NCBI GenBank assembly: GCA_016935735.1
Contig: JAFGQK010000300.1
Location: forward strand, 3,437 to 67,436
DNA: 64,000 nt
Direction: 5' to 3'
Origin: Spirochaetales bacterium
GTDB lineage: Bacteria > Spirochaetota > Spirochaetia > SZUA-6 > JAFGRV01
The notes under the pieces are model-generated. The model was given only the letters and a program-made list of their open reading frames with translations. It was not told where the DNA came from and searched no databases. Made by a program: the position numbers and the translations under genes. Shown in pieces: positions 2,083 to 31,443 of this stretch; the stretch's first letter is position 1, and each line of letters begins with the position of its first letter.

Positions 2083-3738
2083 CTACGGGTTAATTTTCTC
2101 TATAAGAGAAAGATCTTTCACACTTAATGCAAGGATATCCTTTGCACTGCTATTCACGAAAATTTTATCCCGGTAAAAGCTTATAAACGTATCAGCATAT
2201 ATCGGCTCGGTAGAGCGGGCCACCTGTACCATACTTTCATCATATTTCCCAAGATAGTAATTCGTTCCATCAATGGTGATTGCATAGACATAGCTGCCCT
2301 CTTTTTCAACAAAACTCCGGTGGAAAATATTGTCCGTTCCTTTTGCAAGAACATCAAGCGTATCATAATCTAACAGGGTAAGGTAGTGTCCTGCTTCATG
2401 GGAGCCTGTATGGGTAATAACGACAATTCCCTTATCCCACAGGATATATTTTCTCCCACAGATATTTTTTACCGCGGATTCTGAAATTATTTTTTGTGTA
2501 GGTGCATCGATCTTATATAATTCATTGTTATAATGTCCCCCGGTAAGATATTCTTTTATTTTCAGGTAGTAAAATATTCCTTTGTAGATTTTTTCTTCTT
2601 TTTCCTTTTCTTCTATAGTCTTTTCAATAAATTCTTCCGGATTATCTTTCGCTTCCTCGATCATTTTGTCTTTTTCAAGATCCTTTTTGTCTTCTTCAAT
2701 ATCCTTCCTGTCTTCTTCTATTTTGTCTTCTTCTTTTGTAATCCGGTCTTCCTCTTTTGTCACCCGGTCTTCTTCTTTTATCACCCGGTCTTCTTCCTTT
2801 GTTACCCGGTCTTCTTCGTCGGTAATCCGCTTTTCTTCTTCTATAATCCGCTCTTCTTCCTTTTTCCGCTCTTCTTCGTCCTTTATTTCATCAACTTTTT
2901 CCTTATCTTCTTCGAGTTTCGTCTTATCTTCTTCGAGTTTCGTCTTATCTTCTTCGAGTTTCGTCTTATCTTCTTCGAGTTTTGTCCTGTCTTCCTCCAG
3001 AATTCCTTTATCTTCTTCCAGTTTTTCTTCTTTTTCTTCAATGACACGTTCCTGGAGGTCGATCATATCCTCCCGCTCCTCGATTGCCTTGTCTTCTTCG
3101 TCCTTTAACGCTTCGATTGTGTCTTCGGTTAATTCTCCCATATCCAGGGAACTGATATCTCCCTTTTGTGCACCTTCACTTAACGGCACAAGGATTTTTG
3201 TTTTTCCCGGCCATTCCTTATAATTTGTCGCAAGTCCTGCGTTTGTTGCATCAAGATACCCCATGACTCTGTTTTTGTATTTTGTTTCCAGGTAAGAGAT
3301 TTCACCCCTGTGGATTGCATTATATACAGTGACAAAGAATGCAAGGGTACGGGCATCCCTTCCCGAATAGCCATATTGATATGAAAAAAATCCCATGAGT
3401 ATAAGCCTTAAGGTATCAATATGATTTACCCCACCGTACCTGGAGATAGATATAATATCCGCATCAAATTTTCCCGTTTCAGAGGGATCCGCCACATGAA
3501 TGGCAGAAAAAAAGTTATAATATTTCCCCTCTGATTTTCCTGCTTCAAGGTCTTTTGCCATCTTCGCACCCCAGGAGAGTATTTCCTCCACTGTATACTG
3601 CGGATTTTCCCCTGTATAATTTATAAACGTAACCTGTTTACCGCTTGCAGATTTCAGCTCATCAACATCAACTCCTAATGGAAATGAGTTAAAAAGCAGG
3701 ATAACGAAACATACTGCAATAATGAGTGTTCTTTTCAT
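2083..3738 (-). CDS. Secreted protein with an N-terminal signal peptide and a central array of E/D/K-rich heptad repeats (EEDKTKL and EEDRVTK units). Single-alpha-helix- or spacer-like; function unknown.
   Basis: MKRTLIIAVCFVILLFNSF signal peptide. Roughly 20 consecutive 7-aa repeats are encoded by 21-bp DNA tandem repeats. Globular N- and C-terminal domains were not recognised. Confidence 0.6.
   Translation of the reverse strand: MKRTLIIAVCFVILLFNSFPLGVDVDELKSASGKQVTFINYTGENPQYTVEEILSWGAKMAKDLEAGKSEGKYYNFFSAIHVADPSETGKFDADIISISRYGGVNHIDTLRLILMGFFSYQYGYSGRDARTLAFFVTVYNAIHRGEISYLETKYKNRVMGYLDATNAGLATNYKEWPGKTKILVPLSEGAQKGDISSLDMGELTEDTIEALKDEEDKAIEEREDMIDLQERVIEEKEEKLEEDKGILEEDRTKLEEDKTKLEEDKTKLEEDKTKLEEDKEKVDEIKDEEERKKEEERIIEEEKRITDEEDRVTKEEDRVIKEEDRVTKEEDRITKEEDKIEEDRKDIEEDKKDLEKDKMIEEAKDNPEEFIEKTIEEKEKEEKIYKGIFYYLKIKEYLTGGHYNNELYKIDAPTQKIISESAVKNICGRKYILWDKGIVVITHTGSHEAGHYLTLLDYDTLDVLAKGTDNIFHRSFVEKEGSYVYAITIDGTNYYLGKYDESMVQVARSTEPIYADTFISFYRDKIFVNSSAKDILALSVKDLSLIEKINP
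2743..2995 (-). repeat. Two families of 21-bp tandem repeats lying inside the CDS 2083..3738
   Basis: On the + strand: ccggtcttcttcttttgtcac-like units (about 6 copies), then tcttcttcgagtttcgtctta units (4 near-perfect copies). Frame-preserving 21-nt period equals 7 aa. Confidence 0.85.
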
Positions 3739-4570: not shown

Positions 4571-5749
4571 TTGACAGCTATTCTCATACCTGTTACTATT
4601 CCTGTTATGATACAGTCGTTTTCATTTGAATGTCCAGAGACCATCCTTTTCGGGAAAGGGACAAGAGAAGAATTGCCCGGGATAATCCGGCAGTACGGGA
4701 AAAAGGTATGTATCATTACCGGTGCATCGTGGTTTGCCCGGTCAGGATGGCAGGATAGATTTAAAAAGCTTTTAAAAGATTTCCAGATTGAATTTTTTTC
4801 ATGTTCCGGGCGTGAACCTTCGATTAAAAGCATCCAGGGGTTGATTGACAATACCCGGGTTTTTTCACCAGACATTATTGTTGGTATTGGCGGTGGGTCA
4901 GTTCTCGATTCGGCAAAAGCAGTATCCGGGCTTGTTCGTGCAGAAGGCAATGTTGCAGATTACCTGGAAGGGATTGGGAAAGGCATTTCATTACAAAAGC
5001 CCGGTATTCCCTGGATAGCACTTCCCACCACCTCGGGAACAGGCGCAGAAGTGACAAAGAATTCCGTTGTAAAATCAGATGAACATAAGGTGAAAAAAAG
5101 CTTAAGATCACGGTTTCTCCTGGCAGATGCGGTGATTGTCGATCCTGAGCTTACCCTCGAATTACCCCTGTCTGTCTCCGGTATTGCAGGTATGGATGCC
5201 CTGGTCCAGCTTGTGGAATCTTATGTTTCCAAAAAAGCAAAACCCTTCCCCCGCGCCCTTGTAAAACAGGCACTACCCGTAATGTTCGGTGCATTAAAAA
5301 AGATCGCTTCCCATCCCCCTGATTCAGAGGCAAGAACAGGGGCCGCATACGGGTCACTTGTAAGCGGATTGTCTCTTGCGAATTCAGGGCTTGGCGCTGT
5401 TCATGGTTTTGCATCAGCATTGGGCGGGCTTTATGAGATTCCCCATGGTCTTATCTGTGCGGTTTTCCTGAATCCCGTGTTGAAAGCAAATGCAGATGTT
5501 ATCAGGAATGATATTATGGAGCTTTTCCCCGGTATTGTTCATAAAAAAGCAGATCCTGTGGAATGGCTTATGAATGAAGTCACCCTGCTTCTGAAACTCT
5601 ATGGAATCAAACCCCATCTAAAGGATTACGGAATCGGTAAGGATATGGTTGATACAATTGCCGGTAAGGCAACCGGTTCCAGTATGTCCGGAAATCCCAG
5701 GGAGCTCACCATGGAAGAAAAGAGGAAGATAATTCTTGAAGTACTGTAG
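4571..5749 (+). CDS. Iron-containing (group III) alcohol dehydrogenase family protein
   Basis: GGGSVLDSAKA NAD-binding/Fe-ADH signature and conserved His residues (HG ... H). Length 392 aa. Confidence 0.8.
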   Translation: MTAILIPVTIPVMIQSFSFECPETILFGKGTREELPGIIRQYGKKVCIITGASWFARSGWQDRFKKLLKDFQIEFFSCSGREPSIKSIQGLIDNTRVFSPDIIVGIGGGSVLDSAKAVSGLVRAEGNVADYLEGIGKGISLQKPGIPWIALPTTSGTGAEVTKNSVVKSDEHKVKKSLRSRFLLADAVIVDPELTLELPLSVSGIAGMDALVQLVESYVSKKAKPFPRALVKQALPVMFGALKKIASHPPDSEARTGAAYGSLVSGLSLANSGLGAVHGFASALGGLYEIPHGLICAVFLNPVLKANADVIRNDIMELFPGIVHKKADPVEWLMNEVTLLLKLYGIKPHLKDYGIGKDMVDTIAGKATGSSMSGNPRELTMEEKRKIILEVL

Positions 5750-5750
5750 G

Positions 5751-5875
5751 AAGAAGACCAGAGGATCAGAGAGTAAGAAAACCAGCGCATCAGCGAGTCA
5801 GAGGACCAGTGAGTCAGAAGACCAGAGAACCAGAGGACCAGAAGAGTAGATGACCAGAGAACCAGAAGACAGTAA
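5751..5875 (+). repeat. T-depleted polypurine array with 8-nt periodicity (CAGARGAC-like units, about 14 copies) immediately 3' of the adh stop codon
   Basis: Units: cagaggat cagagagt ... cagcgcat cagcgagt cagaggac cagtgagt cagaagac cagagaac cagaggac ... The + strand is about 85% purine with almost no T. Confidence 0.8.
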
Positions 5876-5937
5876 AAAGAGAAGATTGCCTGAACAATTG
5901 TTCCGGTCATACCGATAATAATAAATACGGTACATTC

Positions 5938-6744
5938 ATGACACTTGATAAATCATATATACCATTAAAAACATCTGTTGATGTTGCCAGGATTAGAAGA
6001 AGCTGCAGGATCTGTGAAAAAATACTGGTCCAGTTAAGCAGCTGCATTCGTGAAGGGGTGACAACAAAAGAACTTGATTCTCTTGCAGAGGTACTTATCA
6101 GGAAAGAGAAAGCAAAACCTGTACTTAAGGGGTATGATGGTTTTCCAGGTTCAATATGTACTTCCGTGAACAATGTTGTCGCACATGGAATACCATCCGG
6201 TTATTGTCTTAAGGATGGAGATATTATTACTATTGATATTACCATCGAAAAAGATGGCTGGTATGGAGATGGTGCATGGACGTTTATTACAGGAAAAAAA
6301 CAATCACCTGCAAAACATCTTGTAAAAGCGGCCTGGCAGGCATCGCTGGCCGGTATTATGGAGGTAAAAGCAGGATCTTTCCTGGGTAATATAGGATATT
6401 CAATAAATATGATTGCAAAAAAACATGGGTGTTCAATTGTTAAGGAGTTTGTAGGACATGGTATCGGGAAGGAGATGCATGAGGAACCCCTTATACCGCA
6501 TTTCGGAAAACCGGGAACAGGAAGACGGATTGTCCCGGGAATGGTTTTTACTATTGAACCGGTCTTAAGCCTGGGGAAGCCGGATATTATTATGACAGAA
6601 CAGGGATGGAATTGTATGACAAAAGATAATTCACTTACTGCCCAGTTTGAAAATACTATTGCAGTGTTTAAAGACAGGATTGAAATTTTAACACTTTCTT
6701 GCGGAAAATTAAAAGATTTTATTGACTATCCGCCTGTATTATAG
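5938..6744 (+). CDS. map: Methionine aminopeptidase, type I
   Basis: VAHGIP ... DGDIITIDITIEKDGWYGD ... FVGHGIG ... MVFTIEP metal-ligand motifs. Confidence 0.9.
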   Translation: MTLDKSYIPLKTSVDVARIRRSCRICEKILVQLSSCIREGVTTKELDSLAEVLIRKEKAKPVLKGYDGFPGSICTSVNNVVAHGIPSGYCLKDGDIITIDITIEKDGWYGDGAWTFITGKKQSPAKHLVKAAWQASLAGIMEVKAGSFLGNIGYSINMIAKKHGCSIVKEFVGHGIGKEMHEEPLIPHFGKPGTGRRIVPGMVFTIEPVLSLGKPDIIMTEQGWNCMTKDNSLTAQFENTIAVFKDRIEILTLSCGKLKDFIDYPPVL

Positions 6745-6768
6745 TAATATTACACTACTTGTTTATTA

Positions 6769-6842
6769 GCCACCTTAGCTCAGCTGGCCAGAGCACGTGA
6801 TTTGTAATCTCGGAGTCCTCGGTTCGAATCCGAGAGGTGGCT
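6769..6842 (+). tRNA. tRNA-Thr (anticodon UGU)
   Basis: Hand-folded cloverleaf. Acceptor stem gccacct/aggtggc of 7 bp. D arm gctc/gagc. Anticodon loop tTTGTAa. T arm ctcgg-ttcgaat-ccgag. 5-nt variable loop. CCA not encoded. Confidence 0.85.
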
Positions 6843-6853
6843 TTCTTACCGGA

Positions 6854-23626: not shown

Positions 23627-23708
23627 GGGGAGATACCCGAGTGGCCAAAGGGGGCAGACTGTAAATCTGTTGGCTCAGCCTTCGAAGGTTCGAATCCTTC
23701 TCTCCCCA
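23627..23708 (+). tRNA. tRNA-Tyr (anticodon GUA), long variable arm
   Basis: ggggaga ... cccgagtggccaaaggg ... cagaCTGTAAAtctg ... long variable arm ... ggttcgaatcc ... tctcccc-a. Close to the E. coli tRNA-Tyr pattern. CCA not encoded. Confidence 0.85.
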
Positions 23709-26574: not shown

Positions 26575-28368
26575 ATGATACAGGAACTGTATAGAACAGA
26601 AAAGATGGAATCAGGAACAGAAATTAAAGAAGAAATAAAGAGAAAAATTTTTATTTCCGATCTGGTCGGTGAATATGTAGCCCTTAAAAAAAAGGGAACA
26701 AAATACTGGGGTTTGTGTCCATTTCATACGGAAAAAACCCCTTCTTTTACTGTGTCACCGGACAAAGAGATGTATTATTGCTTTGGCTGTCATAAGCACG
26801 GGGATATTTTTACCTTTATCATGGAGATGGAGAAAGTATCATTTCCCGAAGCCCTTAAAATTCTGGCGCAAAAAGCACATATCCCCCTTTCTTTTGAATA
26901 CAATAAAGAAAAGGAATCCCGGAAAGAATTGCTTTTAGAGTTATATAATCGGCTTACCATGAGTTTTCACCATCTCCTTTTGAACAGCGAGAATGCCCGG
27001 CATGCAAGATCGTATCTTGAAGAAAGAGGGGTGAAACCTGGAATAATTTCCACATTTCAACTTGGATATGCTCCCGGTGACCGGAACTGGCTTATGAATT
27101 TTCTTAAAAAAAAGAATTACTCGGAAGAATTTATGGAAACATCCGGGTTGTTTACCCGGAGGAATAATGAACTTGTTCCTTATTTTTATTACAGAATCAT
27201 CTTTCCCATTAAAAACACCAGGGGTCAGGTGATTGCATATGGAGGTCGGAGGCTTTCCGAAGGGGGACCGAAATACCTGAATTCGCCGGAAACACTTATA
27301 TTCAAAAAAGGAAATACATTGTTTAACCTGGATCAGGCTCTGATAAGTGCAAAAGAGTCACACTCTATCTACCTTGTAGAAGGGTATATGGATGTCCTGT
27401 CTCTTTTTCAGGCAGGAATAACAAACTGTGTTGCACCACTTGGAACAGCATTTACGGAAAATCAGGCTGGAATACTTAAGAGGTATGCAGATAAAGTAAT
27501 CCTTTTTTTTGATGGTGATGAGGCAGGGGAGAAGGCAGCTTTAAGGGCAATTGAAATTTGTGAAAGTAAAGGTATTGAATCCGGGGTCGTTGAACCTCAA
27601 GAGGGACTTGATCCGGATGATATTTTACAAAAACATGGTATAAATGGATTGAAAAAAATCATAGAATATCCTATAAATAGTTTTAGATACCTTTTAAATC
27701 GGGCGTTTCTCAAATTCAATAGGGAAACTCCAAAGGGAAAAGAGAATATATTTAATTTTATTTTTCCATATTTAAAAAGAATTGATTCTCAGATAAAACG
27801 GGATGGGTATCTATCTATTCTGGCAGAGTCTTTAAAGGTTGATTTTAAATCTGTGTGGAAAGATTTTCAGAACCAGAACCGGTTTATGGAGGTGAAAGAA
27901 GAGAATCCTGCAAAAAAAAACAGTTTCTTTGAATCTATTTCAGAGGAGTTGTTTTTAATGCTGGCTTTAACTGCAAACAGGGATTCATTTGCCGGTGTAA
28001 GGTGCGATCTTGCACTCGATCATCTTACAGATCCCTTTGCACGGGAAATATATATAGCCCTGGAAGAGAATTTCCGGGAAGGCACTACTTCACTGGAATC
28101 GCTTATGGAGAAAATCGAAAATGAGGAATTATCCTCATTAATCGCAGAAAAGAATACATCCAGTGAGTTTTCGTATCACCCGGAGAAACTTATCTCGGAT
28201 GGAGTTTTACGGATAAAACGTCGATTATTATTAAAGAAGAGGGAAGAAATTTCTTTTTTAATAAATAAATACGAAAAAAGTGAACCCTGGAAGATGAAGG
28301 ATCTTCTTGTCGAGAAAATGATACTTGATAAAGAATATGAGGAGATAAGGAAGAATAAAGATGTCTGA
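26575..28368 (+). CDS. dnaG: DNA primase
   Basis: Zinc-binding [11 protein letters not shown] ... [23 protein letters not shown] ... FDGDEAG. Confidence 0.9.
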
Positions 28369-30085
28369 ATTGGAGAATGATCCAGCTGTTAAAAAACTGC
28401 TGGAATTTGCCAGAACAAAAAAAATTATCAGTTTTGACGAGGTAAATGATTTCTTACCGGATCATATCATTAATTCTGAAAAAATGGATGATGTCATTGC
28501 AATCCTGGAAAAGAACAAGATCAAACTCCAGGAAGAACAGATAAACCTTGATTTTGAACTTGAAAAGGTTTCCTCGCAAAAGAAGAAACTGGTAAAACAT
28601 ACAAGGGATTCTGCAATTGATGATCCCATAAGGTTATATCTAAAGGAAATCGGGAAAGAGAATTTACTTACAGCAGAACAGGAAGTGATTCTTTCCAAAA
28701 GAATGGAAGACGGCTCTAATATTGTCAAAGAAGTGATTAAATCTTCAGGCCTTTTCATTAATGAATTGTTTATCATTGCCATGAGAATACTTTCAAAAAG
28801 TGATCCAAGGAATATGAACCTTACAAAGAAGCAAATTTCCGAGTTCCTTGCGGAAAAAAGAAGACTAAACCAGGCATACCTGGAGGCATGTAAAGAAAAT
28901 TTTACTCTTTTAAAACAATATATCGATTACAAGAAAAAGTGTGAATATAACGGAAGGGACATTTTTAAGGATAATGAACTTAAGAACATGAAGAGTAATC
29001 TGCAGAAAAAACTTAAGAATGTTGAAATACATAATGTAGAGATTGGGATCCTTTCGGAGCGGTTTTTTAAAGCAAGAAGGGTGATAAAGAATTTCCGGCG
29101 TGAGCAGGACAGGATTAAAAGAAATTTAAATCTTTCAGAGATAAAGGATTTAAGAGGCCTTATGAGGTCTCTTGCCATTCCCAAGGACAGGGAACAGATA
29201 GAAAAAGATCTGAATACTCCTTCGGATGTAATCAAGAAACAGATCCAGGAATTTTACGAATCCAGAAACAAATTAAGAAATCTTGAGTTTGATTTTGAAT
29301 TAACCACCGATAAAATCATAGAAGAAGCAAATGAAATTGCCCGGGGTAAAATAATGCTGGAAAATGCCAAGAACAGGCTTATAAAGGCAAATCTAAGACT
29401 GGTTGTAAGTATTGCAAAAAAATATACAAACCGGGGATTACATTTTTTTGATCTTGTACAGGAAGGAAATATCGGTCTCATAAAAGCCGTGGAAAAGTTC
29501 GAATACAGAAAGGGATATAAATTTTCCACTTATGCAACATGGTGGATCAGGCAGGCGATTACCAGGTCGATTTCAGACCAGGCAAGAACCATCCGTGTGC
29601 CTGTACATATGATAGAACAGATAAACAAAGTGATACGGGAATCCCGTCAGCTTATGCAGATACTGGGAAGAGAACCTTCAAACGAGGAGATTGCAGAACG
29701 TCTGGGCTGGCCGGTAAGCAGGGTGAAATCGGTGAAAAATGTGGCAAGAGAGCCTATTTCCCTGGAAACCCCGATTGGGGAAGAAGATGATTCTTTATTA
29801 GGAGACTTTATCGAGGATAAGGAAGTAGAGAATCCGGCGAGTCAGACAGCTTTCAAACTATTACAGGAGCAACTGGAAGATGTGCTTAAATCGCTGCCCA
29901 AGCGAGAACAGGATGTCCTTAAAATGAGATTCGGTCTTGAAGATGGCTATTCCCTGACACTGGAAGAAGTCGGTTTATATTTCAATGTCACCAGGGAGCG
30001 TATAAGACAGATTGAAGCCAAGGCTTTACGAAGACTCAGACATCCGAAACGGAGCCGGAAGTTGAGAGATTATCTGGATCATTAA
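28361..30085 (+). CDS. rpoD: RNA polymerase sigma-70 factor RpoD
   Basis: Region 2 [38 protein letters not shown]. Region 3 TIRVPVHM. Region 4 LEEVG ... [18 protein letters not shown]. Confidence 0.95.
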
Positions 30086-30088
30086 TAA

Positions 30089-30158
30089 GTCAGAGGACAG
30101 GGGACCAGAGGGTTGGAAGTCAGAAGACCAGAGAGCCAGCAAGTCAGATGGCCAGAAG
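30089..30158 (+). repeat. Second T-depleted polypurine 8-nt periodic array (cagaggac / cagaagac / cagagagc ...) directly after the rpoD stop
   Basis: Same CAGARGAC-like unit family as 5751..5875. About 8 units. Confidence 0.75.
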
Positions 30159-30205
30159 GATAAAAGATACGGAATCCTTATAGAACAAAAGAAGGAGTAG
30201 AACAA

Positions 30206-30946
30206 ATGATGCAGGAAGTTTTTACCAAACTCAGAACTCTTCAGGATATTTTATCGAGGAAATTTGAAATTGAAAGGGATATGAAAGAGATCCCTAAAAT
30301 TCTTACCACGAAAATTGAATTATTGAATCGTTTAAAAAAATCATATGTGGATAAGAATGATGAAATTTCATTTAAAAAGCAGAAGATAAAGGACCTGCGG
30401 GGGAAAATGCTGGGAGCAGAAATGGAAAGGGATAAATATGAACAGCAAATGGATCATGTTAAAACACAACGGGAATATGAAGCCCTGGATAAAGAGATTA
30501 AAACAGCGGCAGAAAAAGAATCCGACTTAAGAACTCAACTCCAGAAAGAGGAGAAAATACTCGAAGAGATGGTTTCAAATATTGAAAGAGAAGAGATAAT
30601 GATTAAAAAGCAGGAGGAAGAAATAAAATCCGAACAATCCAGGATTAAACATGAGTTAAAAGAAAAAAGCAAACTCCTTAAGAATCTGGAAAAGGAAGAG
30701 ACGAAAATAACCCCGGGACTGGATGAAGAAATCCTTTTTAAATTTGAAAGAATTATTAAAAGTAAAGCCGGGGTCGGTATTGTGCCGATCATTCAGGGTA
30801 TATGCACAGGATGTCATATGATTCTTACTTCCCAGTTTACCAATGACGTCCGGCTTCTTGAGAAAATAATGTTTTGTCCAAATTGCAGCCGTATTCTTTT
30901 TTACCAGGAAGTTGAAACAGAAGAAGACATAGGAGAAGAGGACTGA
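30206..30946 (+). CDS. Coiled-coil protein with C-terminal C4 zinc ribbon (COG1579-like)
   Basis: Long heptad-rich helical region followed by CTGCHM ... CPNCSRILF. Confidence 0.6.
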   Translation: MMQEVFTKLRTLQDILSRKFEIERDMKEIPKILTTKIELLNRLKKSYVDKNDEISFKKQKIKDLRGKMLGAEMERDKYEQQMDHVKTQREYEALDKEIKTAAEKESDLRTQLQKEEKILEEMVSNIEREEIMIKKQEEEIKSEQSRIKHELKEKSKLLKNLEKEETKITPGLDEEILFKFERIIKSKAGVGIVPIIQGICTGCHMILTSQFTNDVRLLEKIMFCPNCSRILFYQEVETEEDIGEED

Positions 30947-30970
30947 CTTTTATCTAAAAGTGATTATAAA

Positions 30971-31345
30971 AGACGGGCATGATCATCGCTGTTACTTTTA
31001 TGTAACAGAGGAAAGTCCGGGCTCCATAGAGTAAAATACCGGGTAATACCCGGGTCTGCCCTGTAACAGGGTGGAACAGAAAGTACCACAGAAAAAATAC
31101 CGCCGGCACTCAATTATTGAGTGCAAGGTAAGGGTGAAAAGGCGGGGTAAGAGCCCACCACCTGGCCGGCAACGGACAGGGTATGGCAAACCTTATTTGG
31201 AGTAAAGCCAAGCAGCAGAGGATTACTCGTCCATAATCTGCGGGTAGGCTGCATGAACAAAATGTGAAAGCATTCTGTCAAGACAGATGATGATCACTAT
31301 ACCATGAAAATGGTATTTTACAGAACCCGGCTTATATGCCCGTCT
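30971..31345 (+). ncRNA. rnpB: RNase P RNA (bacterial type A)
   Basis: GAGGAAAGTCCGGGCTCCATAG (P4 5' strand) and ACAGAACCCGGCTTA (P4 3' strand). Perfect 10-bp P1 agacgggcat/atgcccgtct. GNRA-like and conserved A-rich loops (gtaagagcccaccacc, aggtaagggtgaaaaggcgg). Confidence 0.9.
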
Positions 31346-31443
31346 CTTTATTAATTAAGTTTATACACCTCTTTTATAAAAGGAATTGACTTTTTCTTTT
31401 TTTTTCTGTTTAATAAAATCTAACATAGAGAGTTATTATCATT

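Follow-up and report, generated by a model that had tools for sequence, protein, structure and literature searches.

Background

Long simple-sequence repeats, with units of 5-11 nt, are an established class of repeat that is distributed sporadically among genomes and for which slippage has been proposed (Mrazek et al. 2007, as cited in PMC4679880). In Xanthomonas and Nostoc, arrays of the heptamers GGGNATC and GGGGAYT are transcribed and have no link to mobile elements (Rehm et al. 2015; PMC4692102). TAACTGA arrays are present at 169 intergenic sites in one Beggiatoa genome and are absent from close relatives; roles involving RNA-binding proteins and translation have been proposed for them, but are unproven (MacGregor 2015; PMC4679880). 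In Geobacter metallireducens, multicopy tandem octa- and heptanucleotide sites have been read as regulator binding sites (PMC2700814).

The DNA analysed here is a 64,000-nt stretch ("the window", 38% GC) from an uncultured spirochete, in which two arrays of imperfect octanucleotide units follow stop codons. A first-pass annotation of the window held that such elements belong to no standard annotation class. However, Tandem Repeats Finder (TRF) reports a tandem repeat, and similar intergenic arrays of 7-8-nt units have been published (PMC4692102, PMC4679880, PMC2700814); the exact units of the present arrays had no match in a literature search. The arrays are long simple-sequence repeats, or tandem repeats, of a known kind and not a conserved regulatory element.

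Anatomy and composition of the array behind adh

Array 1 occupies positions 5750..5875 of the + strand (126 nt). The gene that precedes it, adh (4607-5749), encodes an Fe-dependent alcohol dehydrogenase (Pfam Fe-ADH and ADH_Fe_C) and ends in a TAG stop codon at 5747..5749 (+), so the array begins, as first described, 1 nt past the stop. Since the C-terminus of the adh product is as long as that of its relatives, the array sits beyond the native stop. It consists of 15 imperfect octanucleotide units with the consensus CAGAGGAC (CAGRRRRY). After an initial G, the units read AAGAAGAC CAGAGGAT CAGAGAGT AAGAAAAC CAGCGCAT CAGCGAGT CAGAGGAC CAGTGAGT; these are followed by CAGAAGAC CAGAGAAC CAGAGGAC CAGAAGAGT AGATGAC CAGAGAAC CAGAAGAC and then by AGTAA. 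With head-to-tail units in the range of 5-11 nt and copies beyond chance, array 1 is a simple-sequence repeat.

The 8-nt periodicity is evident from the autocorrelation of C, which is 14, 12, and 14 at lags 8, 16, and 24 versus 0-8 at other lags. The autocorrelations of A and G also peak at lags 8, 16, and 24, and TRF assigns periods of 16, 24, and 32 with scores of 82-107. The period had been called strict, which it is not; at 5839-5854 a 9-nt unit is followed by a 7-nt unit. The array also contains a higher-order duplication (5799..5870, +), which TRF reports as a 32-nt block present in 2.2 copies with 87% matches and in which units 7-10 are duplicated as units 11-14. The 32-nt block duplication and the 9+7-nt unit pair are signs of slippage or unequal exchange.

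Array 1 is composed of 44% A, 30% G, 19% C, and 7% T. Its A+G content is thus 74%, rather than the ~85% originally given, and it is the top 126-nt stretch of the + strand of the 64-kb window for both purine content and T-poverty. The rarity of T hints at either a purine constraint or a very young age. Deviations from the consensus comprise 33 transitions versus 11 transversions. Positions 2-3 of the unit (AG) are invariant in 15/15 units, and position 1 is C in 12 of 15; mismatches amount to 3/45 at positions 1-3 versus 25/75 at positions 4-8 (Fisher p=7e-4, a value that is overstated because the block duplication means that the events are not all independent). Array 2, described below, also has a nearly invariant CAG and a variable remainder in units picked by eye. 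Such uneven variation counts against neutral decay, because neutral decay would hit all unit positions alike.

The tract had been taken to be non-coding, and indeed no + strand ORF of at least 40 aa passes through array 1. On the - strand, a 94-aa ORF (5626..5910) runs through the array and overlaps the 3' end of adh, and a second ORF (5798-5935) crosses the array as well. The 94-aa ORF is a repeat artefact, as the first reading had it, because it is impossible in relatives that lack the array; no gene is called there on the Logan contig. An extension of adh by read-through or frameshifting was considered and ruled out, given an in-frame stop after 8 codons and the same C-terminus in relatives. 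Beyond the array, the residual spacer between adh and the next gene, map (5876..5937, +), lies outside the repeat and contains a sigma-70-like hexamer pair (5891-5919).

A second array behind rpoD

The first-pass annotation also mentioned a homologous array behind rpoD (28361-30085), and an array is indeed found there. Array 2 (30086..30160, +) starts directly 3' of the rpoD TAA stop codon (30083..30085, +) and contains about 9 units of the same CAGRRRRY family: CAGGGGAC CAGAGGGT .. CAGAAGAC CAGAGAGC CAGCAAGT CAGATGGC CAGAAGGA. The residual rpoD spacer (30161..30205, +) contains the Shine-Dalgarno sequence (AAGGAG, 30192-30197) of the Zn_ribbon_9 gene, whose ATG is at 30206; this AAGGAG is also present in relatives.

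When 48-nt windows are scanned for (CAGRRRRY)n in a phase-aware manner, array 1 scores 47/48 and array 2 scores 44/48. The best of 20 shuffles scores 39, and a score of at least 40 is seen nowhere else in the window. A pattern search gives 33 matches versus 12.5 +/- 3.7 in shuffles, with the surplus mostly in the two arrays. Both array regions are identical in an independent Logan assembly of SRR13394437, which was built from the same reads.

Some units recur in both arrays, as does a 21-mer that matches at 20 of 21 positions (GTCAGAAGACCAGAGARCCAG), and both terminate in CCAGAAG..TAAAAGA. Homology between the arrays over their whole length was rejected, the alignment registers giving 34, 34, 33, and 31 matches of 53, none of them outstanding. 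Because no alignment register stands out, the likeness of the arrays exists only at the level of the unit. If arrays were inserted uniformly across the 7.5 kb of intergenic sequence, the presence of two of them at unlinked junctions, both abutting stops, would have a p of ~7e-4.

Genomic setting and transcription

Both arrays lie between co-oriented genes. Array 1 is flanked by adh and map; array 2 follows dnaG-rpoD and precedes the Zn_ribbon_9 gene, after which comes RNase P RNA. The latter is a class A bacterial RNase P RNA (259 bits, window 30970-31350), located 24 nt past the Zn_ribbon_9 gene in the dnaG-rpoD orientation. Terminator-like sites are absent from 5750-5938 and from 30086-30206, and neither spacer contains the GC-rich hairpin followed by a U tract of an intrinsic terminator. 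Since there is no terminator between the stop and the next start, the arrays are probably transcribed, in the sense orientation. They end 45-62 nt upstream of the next start codons. The array-bearing, purine strand (+) is the G-rich strand and probably the leading strand.

The arrays show no RNA structure beyond that of shuffles (array 1, -12.1 kcal/mol for the 126 nt, z -1.0; array 2, z -1.4). When the whole window was searched with Rfam at gathering thresholds, the arrays had no match, CsrB/Rsm-type families included, and a search of 5600-6000 at E<=1 gave no match either. A G-quadruplex would need at least 4 consecutive G-tracts of at least 3 G; array 1 lacks GGG, and the GGG and GGGG of array 2 are scattered. 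Within 250 nt of the arrays, a search for the inverted partner of a REP or MITE element gave best 16-mers of 11/16 and 10/16, which is the chance level.

Elsewhere in the window, a gene of the Borrelia P83/100 family (2083-3738, -; Pfam E=9e-69) contains ~18 copies of a 21-nt (7-aa) repeat, and these repeats, at 2664-3039, form the most pyrimidine-rich stretch of the + strand in the window. A block of ~17 kb (6.9-23.6 kb) is present between tRNA-Thr (6768-6843) and tRNA-Tyr (23627-23708). This block is absent in one relative, L129, in which a CxxCxxCC gene follows map within 570 nt. The genes of the block encode GT2 glycosyltransferases, a U32 peptidase, two enoyl-CoA hydratases, KAS, and 3-hydroxyacyl-CoA dehydrogenase, together with two radical-SAM enzymes, a methyltransferase, and a sulfotransferase. 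The block resembles a tRNA-flanked island devoted to a modified lipid or glycan.

Absence of the arrays from relatives

The adh-map order is retained in three relatives, none of which has an array in the gap between the two genes. L125 (adh 68% identity) has a gap of 4 nt, L124 (62%) one of 8 nt, and L129 one of 51 nt. The 51-nt spacer of L129 and the final ~55 nt upstream of map in the window have a TCATAC(C)GATAATAA block in common, recognized partly by eye. Since the residual spacer matches L129, there is moderate support for the idea that the added piece is pure array beside the stop. In L254, the closest adh relative found (79%), a 45-nt purine tract is located at the same spot, directly after TAG. 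It reads GGGAGGGAG AAGACAG AAGACAG GAGATAG CAAGGAG TGGGGGGG and, with its heptamer-like units, is a short proto-array.

Array 2 is absent from L126, L127, L128, L129, and L130. Compared with the rpoD/Zn_ribbon_9 spacer of the window (30083-30205), that of L126 (544-597; downstream protein 95% identical) and that of L129 (9948-10001) are 52 nt long. The spacers of L127 (1381-1541), L128 (1714-1862), and L130 (678-888) contain three other unrelated fillers, whose lengths are, in one order or another, 147, 159, and 209 nt. One rpoD-spacer filler contains a hairpin with a 13-bp stem. The rpoD/Zn_ribbon_9 spacer thus differs among all relatives examined and is a hot spot of sequence turnover.

No CAGRRRRY array is found in ~56 kb of spirochete loci (L005, L010, L123-L130), and the C-termini of both upstream proteins, those of adh and rpoD, are unaltered. 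The arrays are young additions, specific to this lineage, in spacers that are unstable in their own right. These comparisons, of array presence and absence and of a short proto-array, are between relatives at 62-95% protein identity.

Similar arrays in other genomes

Octamer arrays of a similar type are present in many phyla among the matches listed for two scans, each of which gave at least 120 loci. One covered a genome collection with one genome per species (CAGNNRRY x4, a pattern that is too permissive) and the other covered metagenome contigs (CAGARRAC x3). Because these patterns preselected CAG, the scans are no proof that the CAG unit is special. Among the metagenome matches listed there is no close relative; protein identity to the window reaches 53% at most. 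A scan of viral contigs yielded 3 matches, too few for comparison with composition-matched controls. A match of the 3' flank to another contig, L142 (AAAAAGAGAAAGAT), was dropped; the contig is unlike that of a related bacterium.

The context of these arrays was evaluated with stop-to-stop ORFs rather than gene calls, and adjacency to stops was judged on the low-GC subset with controls on both strands; in high-GC DNA it is unreliable because spurious stop-free ORFs end wherever the array supplies a stop. Among the low-GC matches listed, the stop of an ORF of at least 100 aa abuts the array ~5x more than expected. This holds both for same-strand ORFs at the 5' edge (5 versus 0.9 expected) and for opposite-strand ORFs at the 3' edge (6 versus 1.2). 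Such a pull to gene 3' ends without strand preference is easier to reconcile with a DNA-level or tolerance explanation than with a function of the sense RNA.

Variation in copy number is seen in two metagenome contigs (41% GC), L186 (4159-4294) and L195 (3600-3631), which share an orthologous junction between genes for an APH-family kinase and an NTP-transferase. The junction reads TGA-AAGAC-(CAGNNGAC)n-A-ATG, where n is 17 in one of the contigs and 4 in the other, and the array fills it from 5 nt past the TGA to 1 nt short of the ATG. The array at this operon junction behaves as a VNTR and is placed like the window arrays.

Of the arrays among the matches listed, 12-17% have an inverted partner array nearby, while the window arrays have none. 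In L026, L031, L057, L068, L085, and others, an octamer array is followed within 250 nt by an array of the reverse-complement unit; such pairs could fold into hairpins, periodic and very long, at the 3' ends of genes. Soil metagenome contigs of ~70% GC (L133, L152, L155, L159, L163, L204, L219, L227, L228, L231, L234) contain a dispersed hairpin, TCTCACC-(CAGAGRAC)3-loop-(GTYCTCTG)3-GGTGAGA. The three copies that were checked are located 15-24 nt past the TGA stops of unrelated genes, and Rfam gives no match for the hairpin. It resembles a REP-like or terminator-like family with arms made of octamer repeats. Finally, two Spirochaetota MAGs carry CAGCAAAT in 9 versus 4 copies (L005 2995-3069, -, and L010 388-422, +). 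These repeats are located directly behind a GTG start preceded by AAGGAGG, and a long ORF (602 aa) exists only with 4 copies, which looks like classic slipped-strand phase variation in a gene for a secreted protein or lipoprotein.

Origin and possible roles of the arrays

The tract is probably a slippage-born, imperfect octanucleotide simple-sequence repeat that resembles a VNTR, is carried passively in the transcript of an operon spacer, and is of one kind with the heptamer arrays of Xanthomonas/Nostoc and Beggiatoa. The array would have arisen recently, in place and in this lineage, with a purine-rich seed immediately downstream of the adh stop as its starting point. It would gain and lose length, 8 nt or a multiple of 8 nt at a time, through replication slippage or unequal exchange. 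It would be tolerated because the upstream protein and the downstream initiation region are left intact at the least constrained position of the spacer. Passively transcribed as an unstructured, purine-rich intercistronic or 3'-UTR segment, it may well have no dedicated sequence-specific function, and its main effect would be a longer spacer that uncouples the two cistrons. R-loops promote repeat expansion in eukaryotes; naked purine-rich RNA past the stop may form R-loops as well and thereby contribute to expansion there. Support for a passive repeat comes from the anatomy of the repeat, the block duplication, the absence from relatives, the L254 proto-array, and the change in copy number at an analogous junction. 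The excess of transitions, the lack of RNA structure, Rfam matches, and terminators, and the octamer arrays of many phyla speak for it as well. The occurrence of the CAGRRRRY family at two unlinked junctions counts against a neutral repeat. Left unaccounted for by the passive reading are the invariant CAG and the presence of the CAGRRRRY unit at two unlinked stops.

Several alternatives assign a role to the array RNA. TRAP recognizes (G/U)AG triplets separated by 2-3-nt spacers, and HutP recognizes UAG triplets separated by 4-nt spacers. The array likewise presents regularly spaced NAG in unstructured RNA, with CAG every 8 nt and weak folding, and by the logic of these proteins it might act as a periodic platform for a multimeric RNA-binding protein, with CAGs 5 nt apart, through which that protein would govern either read-through to the downstream cistron or its translation. 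The near-invariant CAG and the variation of the spacer positions among purines in both arrays, the unstructured RNA, and the position of both arrays on the sense strand within apparent operons would all suit such a protein. Nevertheless, we consider it unlikely. The spacing is unlike that of either TRAP or HutP sites, and the array follows a gene rather than lying ahead of a regulated one. The arrays are not conserved despite flanking proteins that are 79-95% identical, the two flanking gene pairs are functionally unrelated, and a Pfam scan of 48 window ORFs found no gene for such a regulator, whether CsrA, Hfq, or TRAP- or HutP-like. Furthermore, arrays in other bacteria abut gene ends equally in either orientation among the matches listed. 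It is quite unlikely that the tract acts in translation, its Shine-Dalgarno-like AGAGGA/GGAG sequences retaining terminating ribosomes or providing a 30S standby site, so that the downstream gene would still be expressed without the close coupling of the ancestor (a gap of 4-8 nt). The junctions of relatives are of the overlapping type, a Shine-Dalgarno sequence is not evident for map in the window, and the L186/L195 array reaches right to the ATG. However, the 6 Shine-Dalgarno-core 4-mers of array 1 (array 2 has 4) compare with ~5 expected, as estimated from base composition, and the core falls outside the conserved part of the unit; the arrays stop 45-62 nt short of the start codons, and the Zn-ribbon gene retains its own AAGGAG. 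Scarcely credible is a role in sequestering or binding CsrA (GGA) or Hfq ((ARN)n), both raised in the first-pass annotation, even though the tract is unstructured, rich in A/G, and has a few GGA motifs. In arrays 1 and 2, GGA occurs 3 and 4 times versus 4.9 and 3.7 expected; it belongs to the variable positions of the unit and is not presented in loops, the arrays having no hairpins. The longest (ARN)n runs are 3 and 2, where binding to the Hfq distal face would call for at least 4, and there is no CsrB/Rsm-type Rfam match. In general, the content of GGA, (ARN)n, Shine-Dalgarno-like sequences, and purine runs in the arrays is not above the expectation from composition.

Other alternatives act on the DNA. 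The arrays might be the product of a dedicated process, either a mobile or dispersed repeat that targets the position after stops or a templated, telomerase-like addition of 8 nt by a polymerase or reverse transcriptase. One degenerate unit family at two unlinked sites, the precise placement at stop codons, and the 21-mer and array ends that the two arrays have in common would follow from such a process, and an invariant CAG next to variable purines is reminiscent of degenerate telomeric repeats. We regard it as distinctly unlikely, given that no register between the arrays stands out, that terminal inverted repeats, target duplications, and partner arrays were not found, that no transposase or reverse transcriptase gene lies nearby, and that the proto-array found at this site in L254 speaks for growth in place. 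H-DNA and a replication or recombination signal had also been suggested; a DNA-level signal of this sort, whether a triplex or, for example, a Chi-like array, is very improbable. The purine/pyrimidine asymmetry of the strands, the mirror repeat CAGAAGAC, the G-rich and probably leading purine strand, and the tendency of arrays elsewhere, among the matches listed, to abut gene ends whatever the strand are consistent with it. However, H-DNA would call for an uninterrupted homopurine mirror repeat of ~12 nt or more per arm, and the purine runs of the array stay at or below 8 nt because CC or TC interrupts every unit. The 6- and 7-mers of the unit occur at the expected frequency on both strands in the rest of the window, unlike a Chi-like or uptake-like signal, and relatives lack the arrays. 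Direct tests speak against the readings that invoke DNA structure or CsrA/Hfq. A multimeric protein that binds RNA or ssDNA, with the arrays as its lineage-specific platform, or the templated addition of repeats past stops, remains, as a combined proposition, a long shot; if true, it would account for the invariant CAG, for the recurrence of one unit at unlinked loci, and for the exact placement of the arrays against stops.

On the reading of a passively carried repeat, the tract should be annotated as a tandem repeat rather than as a regulatory RNA, and the arrays would be useful as hypervariable markers of this uncultured spirochete lineage. A small but real point is that arrays with 7-8-nt units from several phyla, those described here and those of Xanthomonas and Nostoc, cluster at stop codons. 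We know of no explanation for this clustering. The pair of arrays, with its invariant CAG, offers a clean case for separating selection from mutational bias.

Comparison with known systems

Like the RNA sites of TRAP and HutP, the arrays have a conserved NAG triplet at fixed spacing in unstructured RNA. In array 1, however, the triplets are separated by 5 nt rather than 2-4 nt, there are 15 repeats, and the array is neither located in a leader nor conserved; unlike for TRAP and HutP, no cognate protein is known to us.

Among the short-unit repeats, the Geobacter families also consist of tandem 7-8-nt units (3-5 there) that are scattered in the genome and missing from a sister species. They are short and often paired on opposite strands, whereas the arrays here are single and long and have no inverted partner (PMC2700814). 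The TAACTGA heptamers of Beggiatoaceae, cyanobacteria, and Bacteroidetes resemble the present arrays in that one short unit is found at unrelated intergenic sites and close relatives lack it. However, TAACTGA arrays are located a few nt before start codons, over the ribosome-binding site, while the arrays here begin at stops (PMC4679880). The heptamer arrays of Xanthomonas and Nostoc are likewise intergenic tandem arrays that are not tied to mobile elements or surface genes. They are characterized by G-tracts, G-quadruplexes, and a preference for four units, in contrast to the 9-15 units of 8 nt, with rare GGG, seen here (PMC4692102).

The class of Mrazek et al. (2007) can be compared as it is represented in later papers. 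In the published surveys, as these papers relate them, heptamers dominate, while the unit here is 8 nt, and the copies here are unusually degenerate, with an invariant CAG. In addition, such repeats are described in PMC4692102 as occurring mostly in large, high-GC genomes, and the host here is an uncultured spirochete with 38% GC. As far as the class is portrayed in these sources, the arrays otherwise agree with it: short units are arranged head-to-tail, the arrays are longer than chance and sporadic, and units that are not a multiple of 3 are kept out of coding regions.
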